From Eledone cirrhosa (taxonomy: Eukaryota): a stretch of DNA of 64,000 nt. The position numbers were made by a program, and so were the translations under genes. The notes below the pieces were generated by a model. It was given only the letters and a program-made list of their open reading frames with translations, had not been told where the DNA came from and ran no database searches. Shown piece after piece: positions 4,863 through 64,000 of the stretch. Position 1 is the stretch's first letter, and each line of letters opens with the position of its first letter. Location of the stretch: positions 263,934,001-263,998,000 of the forward strand of contig OZ024740.1 of assembly GCA_964016885.1 (NCBI GenBank), read 5' to 3'.

Positions 4863-4883
4863 TTTATTATTATTATTATTATT

Positions 4884-6553
4884 GTTCTTTGAGTCACAGT
4901 TATCAATGTTAGTTAACTGGAAAGTTTGTTGAAATGAATATCAAGCCACTACCTGCAGCCTCAGATATTCAGGACGTATCGGAGAGTTCTTGCGGTTCCA
5001 AGCAAGCATACCCTTTGAAGTGTTCCAAAAAGCGGGGCTGGACTAATTTTCATTAACCATCCTTGGAAACTCTTGAGATAGTACCTAGTGCGTCTATGAC
5101 AATCGGGACGACCATGACTTCTTGACAGTTCCAAATCCTTTTTACCTCCAACTTTATGTCCTCGCATCGGTTAATTTTCTCCCTCTCCTTTTCTTGCACT
5201 CTCGTGTCAAATGGGCAGGCTACATCTACAATCAGGCACGATCTTTTTTACTTGTCCAAAACCATCAGGTCAGGCTTATTGTATTCTAATTTCTGGTCCG
5301 TCTGTATCCTAAAATCCCATATCACCTTCACCTGATCGTTTTCTATCACCGACTCTGGCTTATGCTCATACCACTTCATAGAATGTGGTAAATTGTTTAC
5401 TTTGCATAGCTGCCAGTGGATCACCCTGCCCATCACATCATGTCTCCAGCCTTTATAGTGAGTCTGGACTAGGTGTTTACACTCGGGTACAATGTGAGCC
5501 ACAGTCTCCTCTCTCTCTCCACAGATCCTACACAGTGGGCTAGCCTCCTACTTGTCAATATGGTGTTTCACTCACTTCGTTCTGAGGGCCTGCTCTTGCG
5601 CAGCTATTAGCATTCCTTCTGTAGCCTTTTTAAGGTCTCCTCTTTTTAACCAGTTCCATGTCTCTGGATCTCTAAATTCAGTTTTCTTAAAGAAGGTACT
5701 ATGAAGGTACTATGAAGGATTATTGTCCTCTCCTTCAGTACAATTTTGAACATTGGCTCCCTACTGTCAGTCACGTATTTGTACAGGTTGTTTTTCTCCA
5801 TCTGAACACAGTCCTCAGATCTATTTAAGTAGAGTCTATCGACATTACTCCTCTTGTGGAAGATGTTGTAGATAGCCAATAGCTTCCTAATCTTCCTATC
5901 CATTTCTTTTTGTTTAGCAACATTCCTCTTCAGAATTCCCGCACTGTACCTAATAATAGGCACAGCTCGGGAATCTACTGCACTTAAGACATTCCTACTA
6001 TTTAGATGTGATTTTAATACGCTCCTTACTCTCCTAATGTACTCAGATTTTATCAATTCCTTCATTTTGTTTGTCCTTAATGTCATCTGCCTCCAGAACA
6101 CCTAAATATTTGTATACCTCCTCAGTGTCAATTTCCTTTATCATCTCACCTGTTGGTACCTAGATTCCGTTGCTTCTGCTAAATTTACCCCTCTTCATCA
6201 CAAGGACTCCACACTAATACCAAATTCCATAGATATATCGTTGCTGAAAATACGGACAGTGTCAACAAGTACATACAACTCCTTCTCACTCTTCCCAAAG
6301 AGTTTAAGATCGTCCATGAAGAGGAGGTTGTTGATGTTAAGCACTCGTTTTCCCAAATGTATCCTGCTCTCACTTTTCGCAATATAACGGTCAGGGGCAT
6401 CAGGGCAAGGACAAACAGCAGAGGGGGCAAGCTATCTCCCTGGAAGATACCTCTCTTGATCTTCACGCCTCCCAAGGATTCTACACCCGATGTTGACTCT
6501 GTTACCCAGGACATCATACTTTTGCTCAACAACTGTGTAATGTTATCTGCCAC
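4884..6553 (-). mobile_element. 5'-truncated, decayed copy of the R4/Dong-like RLE element (family A)
   Basis: GIFQGDSLPPLLFVLALMPL and WDFRIQTD...NKPDL; same 3' UTR as 55861-55934; tail in (TAA)n at 4863-4883; several internal deletions. Confidence 0.93.
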
Positions 6554-6760: not shown

Positions 6761-6973
6761 GTTTCCGTAGGTATGGTTAAGGAAAAGAGAGTGCTCTATG
6801 TAGGCTACAGAGCTTTTTAGTTATGCAATAAACAACATAAGATAAGTATTTCATTTACCAAAGTTTTCACGAAGACAGACGAGCCTGACACAGACGTCTG
6901 TGTCAGGCTTGTCTGCTTTTGTGAAACAGTTGGTAAATGAAATAATTATCTGATGTTGTTTATTGCATAACTA
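6757..6973. repeat. Fold-back palindrome (6818-6973, centre 6895/6896) made from a Penelope pLTR 3' end
   Basis: Near-perfect inverted arms around cagacgtctg; the long arm is similar to 17021-17130; (TA)n on both sides. Confidence 0.85.
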
Positions 6974-13116: not shown

Positions 13117-13155
<39 letters not shown>

Positions 13156-13167
13156 ATATAATTATTA

Positions 13168-13250
13168 GAAATGTAAGCTATTGCCGTATTTTATCAGGCT
13201 AAATAATTTCTTTAATTTCTTTAGTCAAAATACGGCGCTAGCTTACATTT
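13168..13250. repeat. Short inverted-repeat (hairpin/MITE-like) element in (TA)n
   Basis: gaaatgtaagcta..gccgtatttt ... aaaatacggc..tagcttacatttc. Confidence 0.7.
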
Positions 13251-13307
13251 CATATATATATATATATATATACATATAGTTATGTAATAAACAACATAAG
13301 GCAATTA

Positions 13308-13366: not shown

Positions 13367-15675
13367 AAAAATCGTGGTCTATTTATTGAATTGGATTTTC
13401 AAAAAACAAAAATGCAGTCTATATGAAAGTGAGGCTGGAGAAGGAAGAAGGAAAGGAAAAATAAAATAAAAAGACACATGCAAACATACACACACACACA
13501 CACGATTATAAACACCAACATATATATATACATACACACATACATACACACACACATATACACATATATATGTGTATATATACATACACATACATATACA
13601 CATACATACATACACACATAAATATCAAGATATCCATACATACACATACATATATACAACCACACACATATATATACACATATATATATAGAAATATAAA
13701 TATATATATATATATGCATACACATTCACATACATAGCCATACACACATACATATACATACATACACACAATCATACGTATATACACACGTACATACAAA
13801 CACATACATATACACATATATACATGCATACATATGCATGTACAATATTAGAAAAATATACACACACCTCTACATATTCACAGACGCAAATAAATATAAT
13901 AAAAAATATATATAAAAAATAATAAAGACAAAAGTTGACAGCGATACAGGCAACAAATAAAGATTATTAAAAACTATAGGGGGGGTGGCAAGACTCTTTG
14001 TGTATATACCTAAGGTTTTCATTCGGTTTATGATAAGGTTTATAAGAGGCGGTAAGTAGATCAAGATTAATATCAAAGAAGTTAGCATTGGTAAGGTTCG
14101 TATCTATAGTGATTTTAAGGTTAAGATTAACAAAGGTATTGCTTAAATCTTTACGGAATTTATCAAGGTTATGGCCGTTGGTGGTATGAGAAACTGCCAA
14201 TTCGTCATCACGGTATAAACCGATATTATGGGAAGGAAATTTCTCTTTGAGGGTGTGGAGAAAGAATAATCCTACTAAGTCACACACATCCGCACTGTCA
14301 TATGAACCCATTGCAACATCAAAAGAGTTTTCAGGGTTTGACTTTTTAACCCAAATATTTTCATTAGTAAAGAGTAAAGTTTTTCTAGCATGAAAGATGT
14401 CTTCTTCTAATTTAGAAATATTAATGAAGGGTCTTGCAAACTCTAAGGCATTAGTTAATAAGGAAACAGTAATAGAGGGGTAAAAATCAACAATATCAAA
14501 TTGGGTAAATCTACACTTATTTTTACCTTGTATATTATTAAACCAAGAAAAAACAGAGGAAGTATTTAGCCACTGTGATAGGTCAGTCTTAGTTCTAAAT
14601 TATTAGTTATAAATTATTTTTCTTAAGATTTTTTTACTTGCAAGGCCAACTTAGGATTTAGCCGGGTTAATCAGACTGATTAACTGATACACAAAGAGTC
14701 TTACCACCCCCTATAGTTTTTAATAATCTTATTCCCAACATTAGCAGTAGGATTTCTACCTTATCTTCGTCTATAGACATTTTTAATAAAGCCGCCCCTT
14801 ATTATTAACAAACCCTTAAGAACAGCGGTTTTACTGAAAAAAATTATTATTTACCTACCCCCTAAAACTAACCACAATAACAGGAAAAGGAAAATTATTT
14901 GGTTTACACCCCACTTCTCTCTAACTGTCAAAACTAATGTAGGAAGGAAATTCCTTGAACTCTTAGATAAAAATTTTCCTACTAATCATAGATATTATGA
15001 GATATTTAATAGGAATGCAATTAAGATCAGTTACTCTTGTTGCCCATCTATGAAGTCCAAGATCACCAATTCAAATCATACGAGAACAAATCCAGGATGC
15101 AGTTGCAGGAAGCCGGATGAATGCCCATTGCAGGGCAAATGTAACACCAAATCTGTTGTTTATGAGGCTAAAATAACACCTTTAATCAACACCAGCCAGC
15201 CAGGAGTGAGCGATATGTCGGCATGACCCAGGACAGGTTTTACTCACATGTCGCTTCTTTTAAGCACTCCGATAAACGAACAACAAGGGCCCTCGCAAGT
15301 AAGATATGGGAATTCAAGGATAAAAACATCCCGTACTCTATCGAGTGGTCTATTTTAGACCATTCGAGGGAGTACTAAAGGGGCACAAAGAATTGTTCTT
15401 TGAACTCCTTCTCTGCTCTTTACTTCTACTACGGTTTATTTACCTGCTGAATCCACGTTCTGTACTCTTGTATTCTCTTTCTCCCTTATCTCCCCTTATA
15501 TTAAACCTTTTCCTATGTCATTTCCACCCCCCCCCCTTTTTTTGCCTTACACTTCACATACCAAAATTTATTTTTTATTTTTAGATATTAATTTTTTATA
15601 TAATGGTTTTGTGTGTTTTTATATAATAGCCTCGGAAAAGGCTTGAGATCTGCTGTAGGGTCAGGCTTCTTTCTA

Positions 15676-27404: not shown

Positions 27405-27942
27405 GATTCTGTGAGCTAATTAATTGTAAATGACTCTTTGAGTGTATACTCTAAATATAATATATTACTGCTCCCTCGGGTGAGCTAATTTTTAATCCCA
27501 TATAAACGGCTGTTATTTCTAGCGCCATGAGTATGAGATAGGCTAGTGAGCTGGAAGAAACGAGTGCAAAAGCTCGTGCGTTTGTGCTCGTAAACCAGAC
27601 CTTCAACATTTTTTCGAGGTGAAGTAACCTAATTTTTCTGGGTACCTATTGATAAGCACAGAAAATTGATTATTTCTCTTTTATACCATCGTTTGCGAAA
27701 CCTATTTTGATTTTGAGGTTCAGATTGATCTGCGGAAAAGGTTTGAATTTTAAAATTAAAATTTGTCTAGGTACCACGGCTATTTGCCAATATGAGTTTG
27801 TGTATATTGATTTATTATTTTTTAAATCGATACAGGCAGGCTATATTTATTTGAATTAGTTTGTTTCATTCTAGCTAACTTTTGTCTTTTACTATGCAAA
27901 CACTTAGGTGTTTATCATATATTAATTTATATTAACTTGTAT
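27405..27942 (+). mobile_element. Near-monomer of the 545-bp hammerhead-containing repeat (retrozyme-like), between (TA)n tracts
   Basis: Diverged reverse-complement homologue of 35818-36885. Confidence 0.75.
27641..27775 (+). ncRNA. Type I hammerhead with variant UUGAUAA (U3-A8) core and long stem III
   Basis: ggtaccta-TTGATAA-gca...tgc-GAAA-c[long hairpin]g-TC-taggtacc; 8-bp stem I; GUC triplet at 27765-27767. Confidence 0.7.
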
Positions 27943-35801: not shown

Positions 35802-35817
35802 GTATATGTATATATAT

Positions 35818-37062
35818 ATTATATTATATTTAGAGTTATAAACTCAAACAGTGCTTTACAATTAATTAGCTCAAAGAAAGAAGCATTTCTGAGCCGTGAA
35901 ATACAAGTTAATATAAATTAATATATGATAAACACATAAGTGGTTGTATTGTAAATGACCAAGTTAGCTAGAATGAAATATACTAATTAAAATAAATATA
36001 GTTTGCCTGTCTCGATTTAACATAATAAATCAATAAAAACAAACCCATATTGGCAATATCCGTGATACCTGGACAAATTTTAATTGCAAAATCTAAACCT
36101 GTTCCGCAGACAAATTTAAATTTCAAAACCCAAATAAGTTTCGCAACGATAGTATAAAAAAGTGAAAGATTCCATTTTCTGTGTTCATCAACAGGTATCC
36201 AGAAAATTAGGATGTTTCACCTCGAAATATTTTTGGAGGTCTGGTGTACAAGCTCTAACGCACGTAGTTTTCCAGCTCACTAGCTATCCCCATACTCATG
36301 GTGCTAGAAATAACAGCCGTTTATATGGAATTAAAATTTAGCTCAACAAAAGGAGCCGTAATATTATATTATATTTAGAGTTATAAACTCAAACAGTCCT
36401 TTACAATTAATTAGCTCAAAGAAAGAAGCATTTCTGAGCCGTGAAATACAAGTTAATATAAATTAATTTATAATAAACACATAAGTGTTTGTATTGTAAA
36501 TGACCAAGTTAGCTAGAATGAAATACACTAATTAAAATAAATATAGTTTGCCTGTCTCGATTTAAAATAATAAATCAATAAAAACAAACCCATATTGGCA
36601 ATAACCGTGATACCTGGACAAATTTATATTTCAAAATCCAAACCTGTTCCGCAGATAAATTTAAATTTCTAAACCCAAATAAGTTTCGCAACGATAGTAT
36701 AAAAAAGTAAAAGATTCCAAATAATTTCGGAGGTCTGGTGTACAAGCGCTAACGCACGTGGTTTTGCAGCTCACTAGCTATCCCCATACTCATGGTGCTA
36801 GAAATAACAGTTGTTTATATGGGATTAAAATTTAGCTCAACAAAAGGAGCAGTAATATTATATTATATTTAAGAGTTATAAACTTAAATTTGTCCAGGTA
36901 TCACGGTTATTGCCAATATGGGTTTGTTTATATTGATTTATTATTTTAAATCGAGAGAGGCAAACTATATTTATTTTAATTAGTATATTTCATTCTAGCT
37001 AACTTGGTCATTTACAATACAAACACTTATGTGTTTATCATATATTGATTTATATTAACTTG
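35818..37062 (-). mobile_element. 545-bp tandem repeat (2 units and the start of a third) plus an inverted segment (36886-37062); retrozyme-like
   Basis: atattatattt(a)agagttataaact recurs at 35821, 36366 and about 36859; unit 2 has a deletion near 36720; (TA)n flanks. Confidence 0.8.
36064..36199 (-). ncRNA. Type I hammerhead with UUGAUGA core and long stem III
   Basis: gatacctg-TTGATGA-...tgc-GAAA-c[hairpin aaatttaaatttgt/acaggtttagattt]g-TC-caggtatc. Confidence 0.65.
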
Positions 37063-37157
37063 TATATGTATATATATATGTATATGTATGTATATATATG
37101 TGTGTGTGTGTGTATATACACACTCACACACATATATATATACATGCACACACACAT

Positions 37158-37207
<50 letters not shown>

Positions 37208-37252
37208 GAACACATACATGCACACACACACGCACTCACACACATATATATC

Positions 37253-37644
37253 TATAAGTTAAAACAATGATATAAAAATTGAAATAAAAAATCAAGTCAT
37301 TAGAGATATTCTTCGCTGCTTTACGATCGTTTCTAGATGGTGATAATACATTGTAGCTATACTCTGTAATTGATATATGTATGTTTGCAAACTATGAGAT
37401 AAAGAGAATATTTATTACATGCATATCATCAGCTGTTTTCAAAAGCTGCTTTTGAAAACAGCTGATGATATGCATGTAAGTAAATATTCACTTTATCTGA
37501 TAGTTTGTAAACATACATAGATCAATTAACAGAGTATAGTTACAGTGTATTATCACCATCTAGAAACGATCGTAAAGCAGTGAAGTTTATCTCTAATGAC
37601 TTGATTTTTTATTTAATTTTTTTATTTCATTGTTTTAACTTATA
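37253..37644. repeat. About 390-bp fold-back palindrome, centre 37447
   Basis: Arms of about 195 bp around caaaagc-t-gcttttg. Confidence 0.92.
37446..37580 (+). ncRNA. Type I hammerhead-like motif with UUGAAAA (U3-A8) core and long stem II; mirrored on the - strand in the left arm
   Basis: ctgctt-TTGAAAA-cagctgatgata...tatcaccatcta-GAAA-cgatcg-TA-aagcag; palindromic ACGATCGT; GUA triplet. Confidence 0.6.
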
Positions 37645-38026
37645 TCATGACTCTGTTTTCCTTTTAATGTTTTATTGTTTTCCGAGATTTATCTTAACCT
37701 ACAACATTTTTAACATATGGATTACATCGAGTTCTTCATGCAGAATAGACCCCACAACTTACTGTGGATACCTCTGTATATATATATATATGTGTGTGTG
37801 AATGCATGTATAGTATATTTAGCAATATACCGTTTAAAATATAAATTAAATGCGAGGAAACGAAAGTAAGACGACAGGAATTACTGCGTAGTTTGTTCAT
37901 ATTTTTAATGAAATTCATAAACCTGCCCTTTGATTGTTGTTTAAGTCATCTTAGCAATATAGTTCATGTTTATGATTTTAACTCCTAAAACACATATTCA
38001 CAAGGAATATATTATAAATACATGTT

Positions 38027-38329: not shown

Positions 38330-42230
<3,901 letters not shown>

Positions 42231-45034: not shown

Positions 45035-45230
45035 CGAAGGAAATGTGGTAAGGAACTAGGTGGACCATAACGCACCAAAGTACTCAATAATTAGGGTAGT
45101 AGAGTGGATAATAGGAACAAGTAGGACCCGACGGCTGAGCTGAAGCCGTTTCGACGGCTAATTCTGGACTCTGGAGTCCAGAATTAGTCGTCGAAACGGC
45201 TTGAGCTCAGCCGTCGGGTTCCTACTCGTT

Positions 45231-45235
<5 letters not shown>
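45033..45235. repeat. Fold-back palindrome (45111-45235) containing the 3' half of a hammerhead
   Basis: Centre ggactc-tg-gagtcc; arm reads gtcgtc-GAAA-cggct/tgagctc/agccg-TC-ggg; (TA)n on both sides. Confidence 0.85.
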
Positions 45236-49438: not shown

Positions 49439-49556
49439 TAGCCTGTGATAGACAGGCGATACTCCATATTTACAAGATTCTCTATTTAGCGTTAATAAAA
49501 TAAATTTGAATGTTCTGCTTCGGTATTGAGTACTCTTTTCTCTAAACCATATAGTA

Positions 49557-49822
49557 TTAGAAAAGGAAACACAAACAAGAGAAAGACATTTTCCCTTCAT
49601 CAGTTGTCTACTACGGGACACAGATCTTTCAGCGCATTATAGACAATACATCTACCCGTAGTGCGCCTTTTTTTCGTCTTTTCTTTCCCTCATAACTTGT
49701 TGATAATAAGTTAGGGCGCGCTACGGATAGATGTATTGTCCATGATACGCTGAAACGTCTGTGACCCGTAGTAAACAACCGATGATGGGAAAATGTCTAT
49801 CTCTTTTTTTCCCCTTTTCTAA
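49557..49822. repeat. Inverted repeat, arms about 110 bp, spacer about 45 bp
   Basis: ttagaaaagg..gacattttccc..cgtagtgcgcc / gggcgcgctacg..gggaaaatgtc..ccttttctaa. Confidence 0.8.
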
Positions 49823-49876
49823 CACTCATTATCAGTAACCACACAGCCTCGTCCCTCTCGATTTATATATATATAC

Positions 49877-52289: not shown

Positions 52290-55200
52290 GGGGCCCTTTC
52301 TGCCCGTGTGTTTGTTTGTTTATGTGTGTCCGTATACAGCGTGGTGATAATGCCACACAAGGGCCAAGTGGGATGGCGGATCCACAGATGGCTATGTAAA
52401 CATACATTCGCCAATCCTCGATAAGAGTGTTTAAATATCGAACATAAACAGTTCGAATAACGGTGAAATGGAGACTAGAACGTCATGTGACAGACTCTCA
52501 CCCAACAGGTGCCCCCTGGCTCAGCAGCAGGAACCTGACTGTCAACCAAATACTGCTGATGTTGGAGGAAGAAGAAGAAGGAAAGGGGCCAGAACCAACT
52601 GGACGAAAGAATTGAATAGAACTGTTATGCAATGCTACCTGAAAAGTAACCCCAAGGAGAGGGGCTACAGGAGACGGATGCATAACATCTGGAACGAGAT
52701 TGGTTTATTTAAATTAGATGAACAAAAATTGGCCGGGCAGGCTCGGGTAATAAGAACTAATGGGTGGATAAGCGAGCTGGAACTGGAGGAACTGAGCAGA
52801 GAGAATGGCTTGGAGATGGCGGGTGTAGTATGCCAGACAAGCGAGCCGGCGGGAAATGAAGGTGAGGAGGTCCTGAGAACGGAGGAACCACCCGAAGCAG
52901 ACAATGATCTGAATACTGAGATAAATAATACCTGGAACAGAGATACGGCCACTGAGGAGATGAATGCTGACGGGCTAGGACAAGATTCGGTTGACATCCT
53001 AAATTTAGTGGTAGATGAGTTGAACAATGATAGTGGGAGACCTATGAACCTAAGATTTGTAGACAGGAAAAAGTTAAAAGAAACAACAGCTAAGGTAAAC
53101 AAAGTCATCCCATACCTTGAGGCGAGGAGTCTTCACCAGTGCAACAATATCCTCAAAGCAACAGCAAATACGGTGAGGAAACTACTTGGTATAAAAGCGA
53201 GAGGAAACAACAGACAAGAAAGAGCAGAGCCGTGGTGGAAGAAGCGACTGAGTGGGCAAATCGGGGAAATGAGAAATGACATAGGAAAGCTTGAGTCACT
53301 ACTGAATGGGACACTAAAAAACATAGGCACTAAAAATAGACTGGAAATAAAATACAAAACTAGGAGTAAAAAGCTAAATATTATCATAGAGGAATTGAAG
53401 CAACGCATTGTAGCAAAGAGTGCCAATATCAGGCGATACGAGAACAGAGTCAGTCAGTATAAACAGAACCGCATGTTCGACAACAACCAGAAGATGCTGC
53501 TTGGACAGCTTGAGGGGAAAGAAAGAGGCAACGACTTGATGCCTGGGGCGGAACAAGCTAAAACATTCTGGAGAGGAATATGGGAGCAGGATGTTAGACA
53601 CAATGCCCAGGCAGGGTGGATTGAGACAGTACAGAGGGAGATCGGTGAGCAGGCACAGCAACAGACTGATTTGAGTATCACAGTTGAAACTCTTAAGGGG
53701 CAAGCCAAAAAACTAACCAACTGGAAATCACCAGGCCCAGATGGTGTGCAGGGGTATTGGATTAAACATTTAACATCCCTCCACCCGAAGCTGACGGCCA
53801 TGTTCAATGACTGCTTGGTGTCGGGTGAGGTGCCAGAGTGGTTGACAAAAGGTACCACAGTTCTGATAATGAAAGACCGAATCAAGGGTAATGATGTTAC
53901 CAACTATAGACCTATCACATGTCTGCCCGTAATGTGGAAACTGTTGACGAGCATTGTGTCTGAGGAAATCTACCATCACCTCCACACAAACAACTTGTTG
54001 CCGGACGAACAGAAAGGATGCCGAAAGAAGTCACGTGGTACAAAGGACCAGTTGCTTATTGATAAGATGGTAATGGGGAATTGCAGGAGGAGACACACTG
54101 ATCTTGCCATGGGATGGATAGACTACAGAAAGGCATTTGACATGGTGCCTCATTCCTGGATCACCAAAAGCCTGGAGATCTTCAGTGTGGCAGATAACAT
54201 CAGACAGTTGCTGGGCAGGAGTATGGGGTCCTGGGAGACAGAGTTGACATCAACTGGAGTATCCTTGGGAAGCGTGAAGATCAAGAGAGGTATCTTCCAG
54301 GGAGATAGCCTGTCCCCTCTGTTGTTTGTCCTTGCCCTGATGCCCTTGACCATTATGCTGCGAAAAGTGAGAGCAGGATACAAGTTGGGAAGGGGAGAGC
54401 TTACCATCAATCACCTCCTCTTCATGGACGATCTTAAGCTCTTCGGGAAAAGTGAGAAGGAGTTGGATGTGCTTGTTGACACTGTCCGTATTTTCAGCAG
54501 TGATATATGTATGCAGTTTGGTATTGGTAAATGTGGAGTCATTGTGATGAGGAGGGGTAGGTTGAGCAGAAGTAACGGGATCCAGATACCAACAGGTGAG
54601 ATGATAAAGGAAATTGACTCTGAGGAAGGATACAAGTATTTGGGCGTTCTGGAGGCTGATGGCATAAAGAACAAAAAAATGAAGGAATTGTTAAGAACTG
54701 AATACATTCGGAGAGTAAGGAGCGTATTGAAGTCACATCTGAACAGCAGAAATGCCATAAGCGCAGTAAATTCCCGAGCTGTGTCTATTATTAGGTACAG
54801 TGCGGGAATTCTGAGATGGAATGTTGCTGAACAAAAAGAAATGGATAGGAAGACTAGGAAGCTATTGACTATCTACAACATGTTCCACAAGAGGAGTGAT
54901 GTCGATAGACTCTACCTAAGGAGATCTGAGGGTGGAAGAGGTCTTATCAGCATAGAGGACTGTGTTCAGATGGAGAAAAACAACCTATACAAATACGTGA
55001 CCTATAGTAAGGAGCCAATGCTCAGAGCTGTACTGAAGGAGGGGACAGTAGGCCAGGGGATATCCAAGGAGGAAATAACATCAAGGAGGAAGAGCAGCCT
55101 TAAGGGAAAATCCCTTCATAGTACCTTCTTTGAGAAAACTGAATTTAGAGATCCACAGACATGGAACTGGTTGAGAAGAGGAGACCTCAAAAAGGCTACA

Positions 55201-55934
55201 GAAGTAATGCTAATGGCTGCGCGGGAGCAGGCCCTCAAAACGAAGTGGTTGAAGCACCATATCTACAAGGAGGAGGCTAGCCCACTGTGCAGGATCTGTG
55301 GAGAGAGAGAGGAGACTGTGGCTCACATTGTGTCCGAGTGTAAACACCTAGCCCAGACCCACTATAAGGGCTGGAGACACGATGTGATGGGCAGGGTGAT
55401 CCACTGGCACCTGTGCAAAGTAAACAATCTACCACATTCTGAGAAATGGTATGAGCATAGGCCAGAGGCGGTGATGGAGAACAGTCAGGTGAAGGTGCTG
55501 TGGGATTTTAGGATACAGACGGACAAAAAACTGGAACACAATAGACCTGACCTGGTGGTTGTGGACAAAGAAAAAAGATCGTGCCTGATTGTGGATGTGG
55601 CCTGCCCGTTCGACACGAGAGTGCAGGAGAAGGAGAGGGAGAAAATTAACCGATACCAGGACCTAAAGTGGGAGGTGAAAAGGATTTGGAACTGCCATGA
55701 AGTCAAAGTGATCCCGATTGTCATAGGCGCACTGGGGACTATCTCCAAAGGTTTCCAGGGATGGTTAAAGAAAATCGGCCCCTTCACGCTTTTTGGAACG
55801 CTTCAAAAGGCATGCTTGCTTGGAACGGCAAGAACCCTCCGATACGTCCTGAATATCTGAGGCTGCAGGTAGTGGCTTGATATTCAATCCAACGGACTTT
55901 CCAGTTAACCAACATCAATGACTGAGATTCAAGG
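52290..55934 (+). mobile_element. Full-length R4/Dong-like RLE non-LTR retrotransposon (family A)
   Basis: About 180-bp 5' UTR, single intact ORF, 74-bp 3' UTR, (TAA)n on both sides as known for Dong elements. Confidence 0.93.
52468..55860 (+). CDS. Reverse transcriptase / CCHC zinc knuckle / restriction-like endonuclease polyprotein (1130 aa)
   Basis: KSPGPDG, NYRPITCL, IDYRKAFDMVPH, GIFQGDSLSP, FMDD, YKYLG, GGRGL; CRIC..ETVAHIVSEC; RHD, RPDL..DV..EKINRY. Confidence 0.97.
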   Translation: METRTSCDRLSPNRCPLAQQQEPDCQPNTADVGGRRRRKGARTNWTKELNRTVMQCYLKSNPKERGYRRRMHNIWNEIGLFKLDEQKLAGQARVIRTNGWISELELEELSRENGLEMAGVVCQTSEPAGNEGEEVLRTEEPPEADNDLNTEINNTWNRDTATEEMNADGLGQDSVDILNLVVDELNNDSGRPMNLRFVDRKKLKETTAKVNKVIPYLEARSLHQCNNILKATANTVRKLLGIKARGNNRQERAEPWWKKRLSGQIGEMRNDIGKLESLLNGTLKNIGTKNRLEIKYKTRSKKLNIIIEELKQRIVAKSANIRRYENRVSQYKQNRMFDNNQKMLLGQLEGKERGNDLMPGAEQAKTFWRGIWEQDVRHNAQAGWIETVQREIGEQAQQQTDLSITVETLKGQAKKLTNWKSPGPDGVQGYWIKHLTSLHPKLTAMFNDCLVSGEVPEWLTKGTTVLIMKDRIKGNDVTNYRPITCLPVMWKLLTSIVSEEIYHHLHTNNLLPDEQKGCRKKSRGTKDQLLIDKMVMGNCRRRHTDLAMGWIDYRKAFDMVPHSWITKSLEIFSVADNIRQLLGRSMGSWETELTSTGVSLGSVKIKRGIFQGDSLSPLLFVLALMPLTIMLRKVRAGYKLGRGELTINHLLFMDDLKLFGKSEKELDVLVDTVRIFSSDICMQFGIGKCGVIVMRRGRLSRSNGIQIPTGEMIKEIDSEEGYKYLGVLEADGIKNKKMKELLRTEYIRRVRSVLKSHLNSRNAISAVNSRAVSIIRYSAGILRWNVAEQKEMDRKTRKLLTIYNMFHKRSDVDRLYLRRSEGGRGLISIEDCVQMEKNNLYKYVTYSKEPMLRAVLKEGTVGQGISKEEITSRRKSSLKGKSLHSTFFEKTEFRDPQTWNWLRRGDLKKATEVMLMAAREQALKTKWLKHHIYKEEASPLCRICGEREETVAHIVSECKHLAQTHYKGWRHDVMGRVIHWHLCKVNNLPHSEKWYEHRPEAVMENSQVKVLWDFRIQTDKKLEHNRPDLVVVDKEKRSCLIVDVACPFDTRVQEKEREKINRYQDLKWEVKRIWNCHEVKVIPIVIGALGTISKGFQGWLKKIGPFTLFGTLQKACLLGTARTLRYVLNI

Positions 55935-56190: not shown

Positions 56191-58630
56191 CAGTTGAACA
56201 GTTGCGCTTGGCTCTAAGAAAAACCAGCAAATGGAAATCCCCAGGAAAAGACAAAATACAAAACTTTTGGATAAATGCCTTCACAGAGTCTCATGAGCTG
56301 TTAGCCCAACTTTACAATGAAATAGTTAAGGAGCCAGAAAAGATACCATCATGACTAGTTAACGGCATTACATTCCTGCTTCCGAAGAATGATGAGACAA
56401 ACAATCCCAAAAATTACAGACCGATAACTTGCTTGACCACAACGTATAACATTTTAACATCAGTCCTAACTGAATACACATATGACCACCTGATAACAAA
56501 TGACCTATTTCCCATTGAGCAGAAAGGGTGTAAACGAGGCTCATATGGCTGTAAGGATCAGCTTCTGGTTAACAAAATGATACTGGAAGATTGTCATAAT
56601 AGACACAAAAATCTATCGATTGCTTGGGTAGATTATAAAAAAGCATTCGATAGTTTGCCACACAGTTGGATTGAAAAATGTTTAGAGATTTTCAAAATAT
56701 CCCCCGTTGTCAGGAGGTTTTTGTTATTCAGTATGAAGACATGGAAAACGACACTCCTTTTGAATAGTGAAACAAAATCACTGGAAGCTGGAGATGTTAA
56801 TATTAATTGTGGAATTTTTCAGGGTGACTCTTTATCACCGCTTTTATTCTGCATCGCACTTATACAATTAAGTAAAATGCTCAATGAAACAAAACATGGA
56901 TATAAAGTCTATGACAAAACCATTAATCACTTGTTCTACATGGATGACCTGAAACTATTTGCAAAAAATGATGAACAATTGCAAAGGCTATTATCCACTG
57001 TGGAGCAGTTCATTGATGACATTAAAATGGAGTTTGGACTAGATAAATGCGCCAAAGCAACGTTCACCAGAGGAAAGCTGCTGAAGAGTTCAGACATTAA
57101 TCTTGATCGGGGGAACGTGATAATAGAACTTGATCAAGAAAAAACTTACAAATATCTAGGTGTTTGTGAAGGAGACGGAATCAAGCACTCGACAATGAGG
57201 GAAAGGATAAGGAAGGAATGTTACCGCAGAGTAAGAGCAATCTTAAGAACGGAATTGAATGCAAGGAATAGGATCGATGCCATAAACAAGCTTGCCATAC
57301 CAGTAGTAACCTACAGTTACAATGTCATCAACTGGTCAAGCACAGAGATCCGTAGGCTCGATACAAAAATTCGAAAATTCTTAACCATGCACAGAATGCA
57401 TCACCTTGAGGCAGATATAGATAGAACATATCTCCCTAGTAAAGAAGGAGGACGTGGGTTAATCCAGTTAGACATTGCATTGAAAACTGCAACAATTGGA
57501 TTATCTACATACCTAAGGGAATCACATGATTGGATGATCAAACTCGTTTTGAAACACGAAAGCATCAAAAGATCATATTCCATTACAAAAGATGCACAAA
57601 GATACAGTAATGGACTACAAATTTCAGAAGTCCCATTTACTGCTGAAATGGAAAACACAGCAAAAGCAAAGCAGGTAAAAGTAACTGCAAAGAAAGAACT
57701 GCTACAGAAACTGGCTAAGAAATAAAAAGAAAAGCCTCTGTATGGAAAATACCCAGAGCGAGCTAACAGTCCTGATGTTGACAAAACTTTAACCCATCAG
57801 TGTTTGGCATCTTCTGGACTGAAATCGGAGACTGAAGGACTGATTATATCAGCACAAGATCAGTGTCTGCCAACAAAAAATTACCAAGCCAACATAATAA
57901 AAAATGGATGCAGCCCATTATGCCGTGTATGCAAAAAACAACCAGAGGCCATTGACCATATAATTTCAATGTACAGTCCTATAGCTCCAACCGAATACCT
58001 AAACAGGCATGACAGATCTGCACAATACATACATTGGATAATGTGTAAGCATTTTGACCTGCCCCATCAAAAGAATTGGTGGGAGCATCAACCACCTCCC
58101 ATACTTGAAAAGGATCACGTCTCAATCTTGTGGAACTTTAGCATCCAAACAGACCGAAAATAGATGCAAATAGACCTGATATAATATTGAGGGACTTTAA
58201 AAAAAGGGTATGCCTGCTAATTGATATGTCTGTTCCAATAGACAAGAATGTATCTATAAAAACATTTGAAAAATTGAGCAAGTATAAGGACCTGGAGATA
58301 GAAATTGGAAAAATGTGGACATTGAGAACTAAAACAATACCAGTGGTTGTGGGCGCTCTGGGAATGATACCTAAGGGGTCTAATGATTACTTATCGCAAA
58401 TCCCAGGAAACCCGCGTATAGGAGAAATACAAAAGATAGTACTAATGGGAACTGCCCATATACTAAGGAAGATTCTGTCAATATAAGTACATCACAAGTC
58501 TAAACACTAAAGATGCATGTGTGAGTATGTGTGTTCTTTCTTGAACATGGCGGACCTTGTTGTCTCTTGAGGTCACTGGTTGTGACATGGTGATAACTCG
58601 TATGAACATAAAGCAAGATAAATGCAACTG
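56191..58630 (+). mobile_element. 5'-truncated RLE non-LTR element, second R4/Dong-like family (B), with stop codons
   Basis: KWKSPGKD, VDYKKAFD, GIFQGDSLSP, FYMDD, CRVC..EAIDHII, RHD, RPD, IDMSVP..EKLSKYKDL; (TAA)n on both sides. Confidence 0.93.
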
Positions 58631-63032: not shown

Positions 63033-63076
<44 letters not shown>

Positions 63077-63088
63077 GTTATTGTTATT

Positions 63089-64000
63089 CCTTGAATCTCA
63101 GTCATTGATGTTGGTTAACTGGAAAGTCCGTTGGATTGAATATCAAGCCACTACATGCAGCCTCAGATATTCAGGACGTATCGGAGGGTTCTTGCCGTTC
63201 CAAGCAAGCATGCCTTTTGAAGCGTTCCAAAAAGCGTGAAGGGGCCGATTTTCTTTAACCATCCCTGGAAACCTTTGGAGATAGTCCCCAGTGCGCCTAT
63301 GACAATCGGGATCACTTTGACTTCATGGCAGTTCCAAATCCTTTTCACCTCCCACTTTAGGTCCTGGTATCGGTTAATTTTCTCCCTCTCCTTCTCCTGC
63401 ACTCTCGTGTCGAACGGGCAGGCCACATCCACAGTCAGGCACGATCTTTTTTCTTTGTCCACAACCACCAGGTCAGGTCTATTGTGTTCCAGTTTTTTGT
63501 CCGTCTGTATCCTAAAATCCCACAGCACCTTCACCTGACTGTTCTCCATCACCGCCTCTGGCCTATGCTCATACCATTTCTCAGAATGTGGTAGATTGTT
63601 TACTTTGCACAGGTGCCAGTGGATCACCCTGCCCATCACATCGTGTCTCCAGCCCTTATAGTGGGTCTGGGCTAGGTGTTTACACTCGGACACAATGTGA
63701 GCCACAGTCTCCTCTCTCTCTCCACAGATCCTGCACAGTGGGCTAGCCTCCTCCTTGTAGATATGGTGCTTCAACCACTTCGTTTTGAGGGCCTGCTCCT
63801 GCGCAGCCATTAGCATTACTTCTGTAGCCTTTTTGAGGTCTCCTCTTCTCAACCAGTTCCATGTCTGTGGATCTCTAAATTCAGTTTTCTCAAAGAAGGT
63901 ACTATGAAGGGATTTTCCCTTAAGGCTGCTCTTCCTCCTTGATGTTATTTCCTCCTTGGATATCCCCTGGCCTACTGTCCCCTCCTTCAGTACAGCTCTG
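63089..64000 (-). mobile_element. Family A RLE copy, almost identical to the full-length element; runs off the window
   Basis: ORF 63163-63852 differs at two residues from the C-terminus of 52468-55860; (TAA)n tail at 63033-63088. Confidence 0.96.

Follow-up and report, generated by a model that had tools for sequence, protein, structure and literature searches.

The window analysed here is a 64,000-nt stretch of Eledone cirrhosa contig OZ024740.1 (positions 263,934,001 to 263,998,000, forward strand). At 37253-37644 it contains a palindrome that consists of two head-to-head terminal repeats (pLTRs) of an endonuclease-bearing (EN+) Penelope-like element (PLE). The insertion is a stub without an ORF, and TA-rich microsatellite adjoins both of its ends. 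The following features were assigned, the hammerhead motif of the right arm from the sequence, the family pairing table and the fold:

37060 to 37252: TA/TG/CA microsatellite of the left flank, likely target
37253 to 37446, minus strand: left arm, inverted pLTR copy from G(-4) of stem I to the short 3′ end of the family
37315 to 37446, minus strand: type I hammerhead motif of the left arm, core at 37442-37436, 4 native stem I pairs left
between 37322 and 37321, minus strand: predicted cut of the left arm
37446 to 37447: head-to-head junction, 2-3 nt inside the modal 5′ end of the family (first A of stem I)
37447 to 37777, plus strand: right arm, pLTR copy from T(-5) of stem I to the long 3′ end of the family, 91% identity to copy L015 (320 nt)
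37447 to 37581, plus strand: type I hammerhead motif of the right arm
37447 to 37451 and 37575 to 37579, plus strand: stem I of the right arm
37452 to 37458, plus strand: core U3-A9 of the right arm
37459 to 37562, plus strand: stem II of the right arm
37563 to 37566, plus strand: G12-A15.1 of the right arm
37566 to 37573, plus strand: palindromic stem III of the right arm
between 37574 and 37575, plus strand: predicted cut of the right arm
37645 to 37777, plus strand: one-sided tail of about 133 nt, which extends the right arm past the limit given in an earlier note on this DNA
37778 to 37800: (TA)n/(TG)n microsatellite of the right flank, likely target

The palindrome described in the earlier note was borne out, as 183 of 198 aligned columns were identical between the arms (37253-37446 on the minus strand and 37447-37644 on the plus strand). 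The differences comprise 4 transitions, 6 transversions and 5 gap columns, corresponding to about 8% divergence around a centre at 37447, and the computed fold of the whole hairpin with both arms had a minimum free energy (MFE) of -265 kcal/mol. The back-to-back U3-A8 hammerhead motifs were likewise recovered: from the centre outward both arms carry a partial stem I, the core TTGAAAA, a long imperfect stem II, GAAA, the palindromic stem III ACGATCGT, A17 and AAGCAG, and the GUA triplet is present in both. The limits were corrected at two places. The right arm had been taken to start with ctgctt; its C (37446) is a base of the left arm, the family reading ATTGCTT there, and with this assignment 5 native stem I pairs remain in the right arm and 4 in the left. 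The end at 37644 does not hold for the right arm, in which the family sequence goes on to 37777, and the left arm has the short family end. In the full-length copy L133 the tail sequence of 37645-37777 leads into the 5′ leader of the ORF.

For the identification of the family a 21-nt anchor was used, which matched the genome exactly at least 1,663 times, while its reversed control had no match. Going upstream in longer copies, the 3′ UTR is followed by a GIY-YIG domain with a CxC..CPLxGxC linker and then by an RT with GLYRDD. L133 is a full-length broken copy with the order pLTR, pieces of the RT/GIY-YIG ORF, 3′ UTR, and pLTR with an inverted copy; its ORF is flanked by pLTRs, and in both L133 and L123 the GLYRDD RT and CxC..CPLxGxC/YIG pieces sit between pLTR copies. 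The family ORF pieces matched GIY-YIG in Pfam with E=0.0014, under the curated cut-off, and those of L133 were 34-46% identical to an intact-looking PLE-type ORF that belongs to another family. The latter ORF (L135:4703-7234) has 844 aa and is nested in a copy of the PLE family of the window; a Pfam search of this ORF gave no match. A non-LTR retrozyme was rejected as the source of the repeats, which are arranged head-to-head instead of head-to-tail and represent the pLTR of a coding element. A special status of the ribozyme variant or the palindrome at the locus was not supported: U3-A8 occurs family-wide and dozens of like insertions are present; the window locus is an aged, ordinary, protein-less stub, of which the layout and the ribozyme variant were both already known.

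Several further repeats were observed in the window. A degraded PLE-type ORF at 38404-40737 (plus strand) belongs to a different family; its assignment to the same family was rejected, as there was no DNA match to L133 and the protein identity was 28-61%. About 1.3 kb past this ORF, a canonical C3-G8 type I hammerhead (CTGAAGA, stem III TATATA) at 42027-42081 (plus strand) ends in (TA)n and is probably its 3′ pLTR. A PLE-type RT/endonuclease remnant in two inverted pieces (13982-15193) lies within an inverted repeat of about 1 kb (12998-13961/16331-17335). At 35816-37065 a partial tandem and inverted repeat with PLE-like layout ends in (TA)n and has a further copy at 27407-27942; no hammerhead core was found in the repeat at 35816-37065. 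LINE-type RT ORFs (Pfam RVT_1) are located at 52435-55860 and 56355-57725, and the window holds an inverted copy of 99.5% identity (63062-64000) as well as an older one (4864-6553). Additionally, four more short palindromes were noted (6818-6973, 13129-13286, 45111-45235 and 49553-49826).

The hammerhead core was analysed in two sets of family copies. The 3′-anchored sample comprised the first 100 listed anchor matches, all on one contig (C1), of which 74 reach stem I. U3 and A8 were each present in 73 of these 74 copies, and N7 was A in 47, C in 24 and U in 3. This core frequency decides against the decay of a CTGAAGA consensus, the outcome named in the earlier note as refuting its reading, since none of the 74 copies has C3 or G8. 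The larger set included all 218 distinct fetched copies with a whole motif and is biased by motif searches; here the 3-8 pair was U-A in 216 copies, and the GUA triplet is present. Among the 24 polymorphic sites of the 218 copies, 16 are in the loop, 5 in stem II pairs, 2 in unpaired positions and only one, N7, in the core. The variable stem II pairs mostly stay paired, as at 13-103 with G-U in 103, G-C in 68, A-U in 32 and A.C in 6 of the 218 copies. Stems I and II pair in most copies and their variants are pair-neutral. This pattern of variation fits selection in source elements; judged from the sequences, selection on the hammerhead is likely to have acted in active source elements and not at the window locus, where both arms have the rare A.C at stem II 13-103, A at position 61 and a shortened stem I.

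At its base, stem II has C.A in place of a pair in 204 of the 218 copies, with the first G-C pair two positions further out, and the family therefore lacks the G10.1-C11.1 pair closing stem II. From this departure from the conserved G10.1-C11.1, weak cleavage is predicted. Folding gave pair probabilities of 0.66-0.99 for stem I and of about 0 for stem III as a monomer, so that a dimer would be required for stem III. The fold of the motif only had -26.5 kcal/mol with a z of -1.57. In an Rfam scan hammerheads were absent among the best 150 of 153 matches, which contained only microRNA-like hairpin noise. An internal CTGATGA (37462-37468) was rejected as a second core, as it is CTGGTGA in most copies and its position lies within stem II. 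The loop of stem II contains a GTAAGT splice-donor consensus (37476-37481), and several AG acceptors are found in 37459-37563; splicing at these sites could shorten or destroy the hammerhead. An analogous effect of splicing on the hammerhead is known for the intron of the D. virilis Penelope. Over part of one family copy no splice joint was seen (three runs, contigs only, one sample), an outcome that says nothing about splicing.

The 5′ ends of the family pile up at the front of stem I. In the 3′-anchored sample 30 of the 100 copies end within the 12 nt from -9 to +2 of U3, 9 of them exactly at -7, the first A of stem I. Among the other 70 copies, 18 end within the next 106 nt and 52 reach farther upstream, which means that other templates exist. 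Both arms end at -7 in 12 loci, and a G adjoins one arm in 10 of these. The spacers of the 12 loci are a single C or G (8), GG (1), TTG (1), AATT (1) or none (1), and some of them are ambiguous due to a second subfamily with native C at -8. In the subfamily with native T at -8, the non-native base before -7 was G in 33, C in 26 and A in 18 of 77 copies by hand count, whereby the enrichment of C (26/77) is partly native to the second subfamily. Inspection of 30 of the 77 copies yielded 26 true truncations (12 G, 9 C and 5 A). The G at truncations is untemplated in at least 5 cases and templated by the inverted arm in 5 of 12. An extra untemplated G at full-length L1 5′ ends has been interpreted as a copy of the cap (PMC4859970), and an internal promoter is described in the pLTR of the D. 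virilis Penelope (PMC2377424). The cluster of 5′ ends together with the extra G suggests that a capped RNA starts at the first base of stem I. The bases around -7 also resemble an initiator motif.

A second, smaller group of ends coincides with the predicted ribozyme cut site. A non-native base immediately ahead of the predicted scissile bond was present in 33 listed matches; 30 of these were examined, and 12 of the 30 started exactly at the bond, with one ambiguous. Two control positions analysed in the same way yielded 2 starts among 30 examined copies at -4 (36 listed) and 5 among 30 at +4 (52 listed). The excess had p=0.006 against the control four bases upstream and, after scaling, a non-significant p=0.26 against the downstream one, the p-values being optimistic because the sampled copies are related and two arms of one insertion are not independent. 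Excluded by eye were L223 and L227 (upstream extensions of 5 and 12 nt), L219 (ambiguous) as well as L266 and L298 (internal deletions); L276, which reads as a cut-site start with a substitution, was placed in neither group. In 15 palindromes with nearby junctions, the loci of which overlap those of the cut-site set, 8 of 30 arms (5 loci) end exactly at the bond, with both arms doing so in three loci, and 2 more are compatible with bond ends. Three further loci (G000:C2:372341150, C5:26984196 and C7:49884623) are centred on the stem III 8-mer, which is the predicted site of dimer pairing. G precedes 3 of the 12 cut-site ends, compared to 12 G and 5 A at -7 (p=0.051). These starts suggest cleavage by the ribozyme in vivo. 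A published report of genomic cut-site starts was not found in a search with little coverage of subscription journals. Priming on stem I by a cDNA end produced at the cut site was rejected as a general cause, as it explains few junctions (2 matches and L111).

Both groups of ends might instead have arisen without any RNA end, the pile-up at stem I by a structural pause or template switch of the RT or by resolution of a DNA cruciform, and the ends at the cut site by a similar pause. Such an origin would account for the location of both hotspots at the edges of stem I, the stem with the pair probabilities given above, and for the scatter of the stem I 5′ ends across about 12 nt. Microhomology moreover shapes junctions, as seen in the 3 of 15 palindromes centred on the 8-mer and in three junctions in which a cut-site end is joined to the core via a shared TGCTT (L111 and two matches). 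However, the mode is the single base -7 with an excess of G directly before it, an RT that has arrived at -7 has already copied the entire motif, and the flanking bases resemble an initiator. Pausing is hence regarded as a rather unlikely explanation, and RNA 5′ ends are preferred.

The inverted junctions allow a second comparison. All fetched loci yielded 90 head-to-head junction rows, in which two loci are counted twice and some may be duplicated segments. Among the 75 classifiable rows, 72 combine a long and a short 3′ end, 2 are long-long and one is short-short; 15 further rows were unclassed. In 11 rows (10 loci) the arms have no shared sequence, usually because a tail-only inverted arm is joined to a short-ended arm that reaches stem I. 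The earlier note had placed a fold at the start of stem I. Its position stood, the junction there being non-random (30/100 copies), and the fold-back origin did not, in view of the 72 of 75 rows with unequal 3′ ends and the 10 non-overlapping loci. In a fold-back, a cDNA or antisense template would fold near stem I and be copied back, and the endonuclease would later trim one arm to the short end; self-priming on an antisense template was proposed earlier for PLE junction palindromes (PMC3846280). The window arms do share the rare states A.C at 13-103 and A at 61, and in 10 of the 12 G-junction loci the arms align over at least 50 nt at 83-99%. Shared variants are equally expected when one RNA serves as template for both arms, and a single folded cDNA cannot produce arms without shared sequence. 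Fold-back is thus held to be improbable, and the junctions favour two primings for the inverted insertions. Two primings on one RNA would explain the long and short rule, the shared arm variants and the layout in the window alike.

Retention of the palindrome as a functional locus, either as a 195-bp dsRNA hairpin for small RNAs or editing or as a ribozyme switch, is considered highly improbable: the MFE of -265 kcal/mol and small RNAs from PLE copies in rotifers (PMC3846280) speak for it, but the arms have diverged by about 8%, including 6 transversions and 5 gap columns, without the excess of A-to-G changes that editing would leave, no sign of function was seen, dozens of like insertions are present in the genome, and in a read-through transcript the arm pairing far outweighs the motif fold (-26.5 kcal/mol), so that the hairpin would bury the ribozyme.

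The window insertion is made up of two head-to-head pLTR pieces, and these were, with good probability, reverse-transcribed from element RNA with the two cut strands of a TA-microsatellite target as primers. One strand would have primed at the far start site in the tail and the other at the near start site, and both cDNAs would have run to the 5′ end of the RNA, likely its capped start on the first A of stem I. The cDNA ends would then have been joined with a loss of 2-3 nt from each. Since both copies would have reached the RNA 5′ end, the template at the window locus would have been uncut RNA. For a minority of the family templates, cleavage by the ribozyme may have occurred before copying, giving copies that start at the predicted scissile bond. 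A wider reading is advanced tentatively and with less than even confidence: the genome would record both RNA 5′ ends, namely the cap, on the hammerhead's first base, and the ribozyme cut, 129 nt downstream of it; the hammerhead with U3-A8 and C.A closure would be active and serve as a self-decapping switch heading the PLE mRNA; and the long and short rule would reflect two primings on one RNA at tail-bounding sites.

The insertion agrees with EN+ PLE insertions described in PMC8557442 and PMC3846280 in its head-to-head pLTRs, inverted 5′-truncated copy, one-sided tail and (TA)n target, and the RT with C-terminal GIY-YIG and, upstream of it, the Zn-finger-like CxC..CPLxGxC linker is like that of Neptune/Nematis. 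In contrast to these EN+ PLEs, the tail has about 133 nt instead of 30-40 nt, and the junctions gather at two points, the first base of stem I and the predicted cut. U3-A8 hammerheads and opposite-strand pairs are already published for PLEs; PMC4209133 reports U3-A8 from about 1,300 S. mansoni PLE motifs and opposite-strand pairs 100-700 bp apart. The minimal hammerheads of Schistosoma mansoni Cercyon described there share the U3-A8 covariation, type I topology, palindromic stem III and opposite-strand pairs. The family differs from them in a stem II of about 17 bp with a loop of about 65 nt, and in a stem II base of C.A followed by A-U/G.U, whereas Cercyon has one unpaired base and G10.1-C11.1. 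In its proposed mechanism the family resembles PAc (Poseidon, Anolis; PMC11167929): with this PLE protein in vitro, both strands are nicked and extended, synthesis begins at two internal tail-bounding sites, and the RNA used is mainly uncut. Unlike PAc, for which no reads ended at the ribozyme cut site, some genomic copies here begin exactly there. Twin priming of L1 (PMC4859970) resembles the family in the two-priming inversion and the extra G at full-length 5′ ends, and differs from it in that the family would use fixed priming sites set by the element itself, with arms whose overlap can be complete and then gives a palindrome.

The origin of the inverted ends of PLEs and the cleavage of their hammerheads in vivo are called open questions in PMC8557442 and PMC11167929. 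On both, this family of more than 1,600 copies yields base-precise predictions, namely that the RNA starts on the first base of stem I, that a 5′-OH lies at the scissile bond, and that each insertion has a long and a short arm. The value lies in the statistics of the family, as the window locus itself is ordinary. As far as can be read from the genome, the break points of the family hint at the mechanism of insertion, and the ribozyme may cut in the cell.
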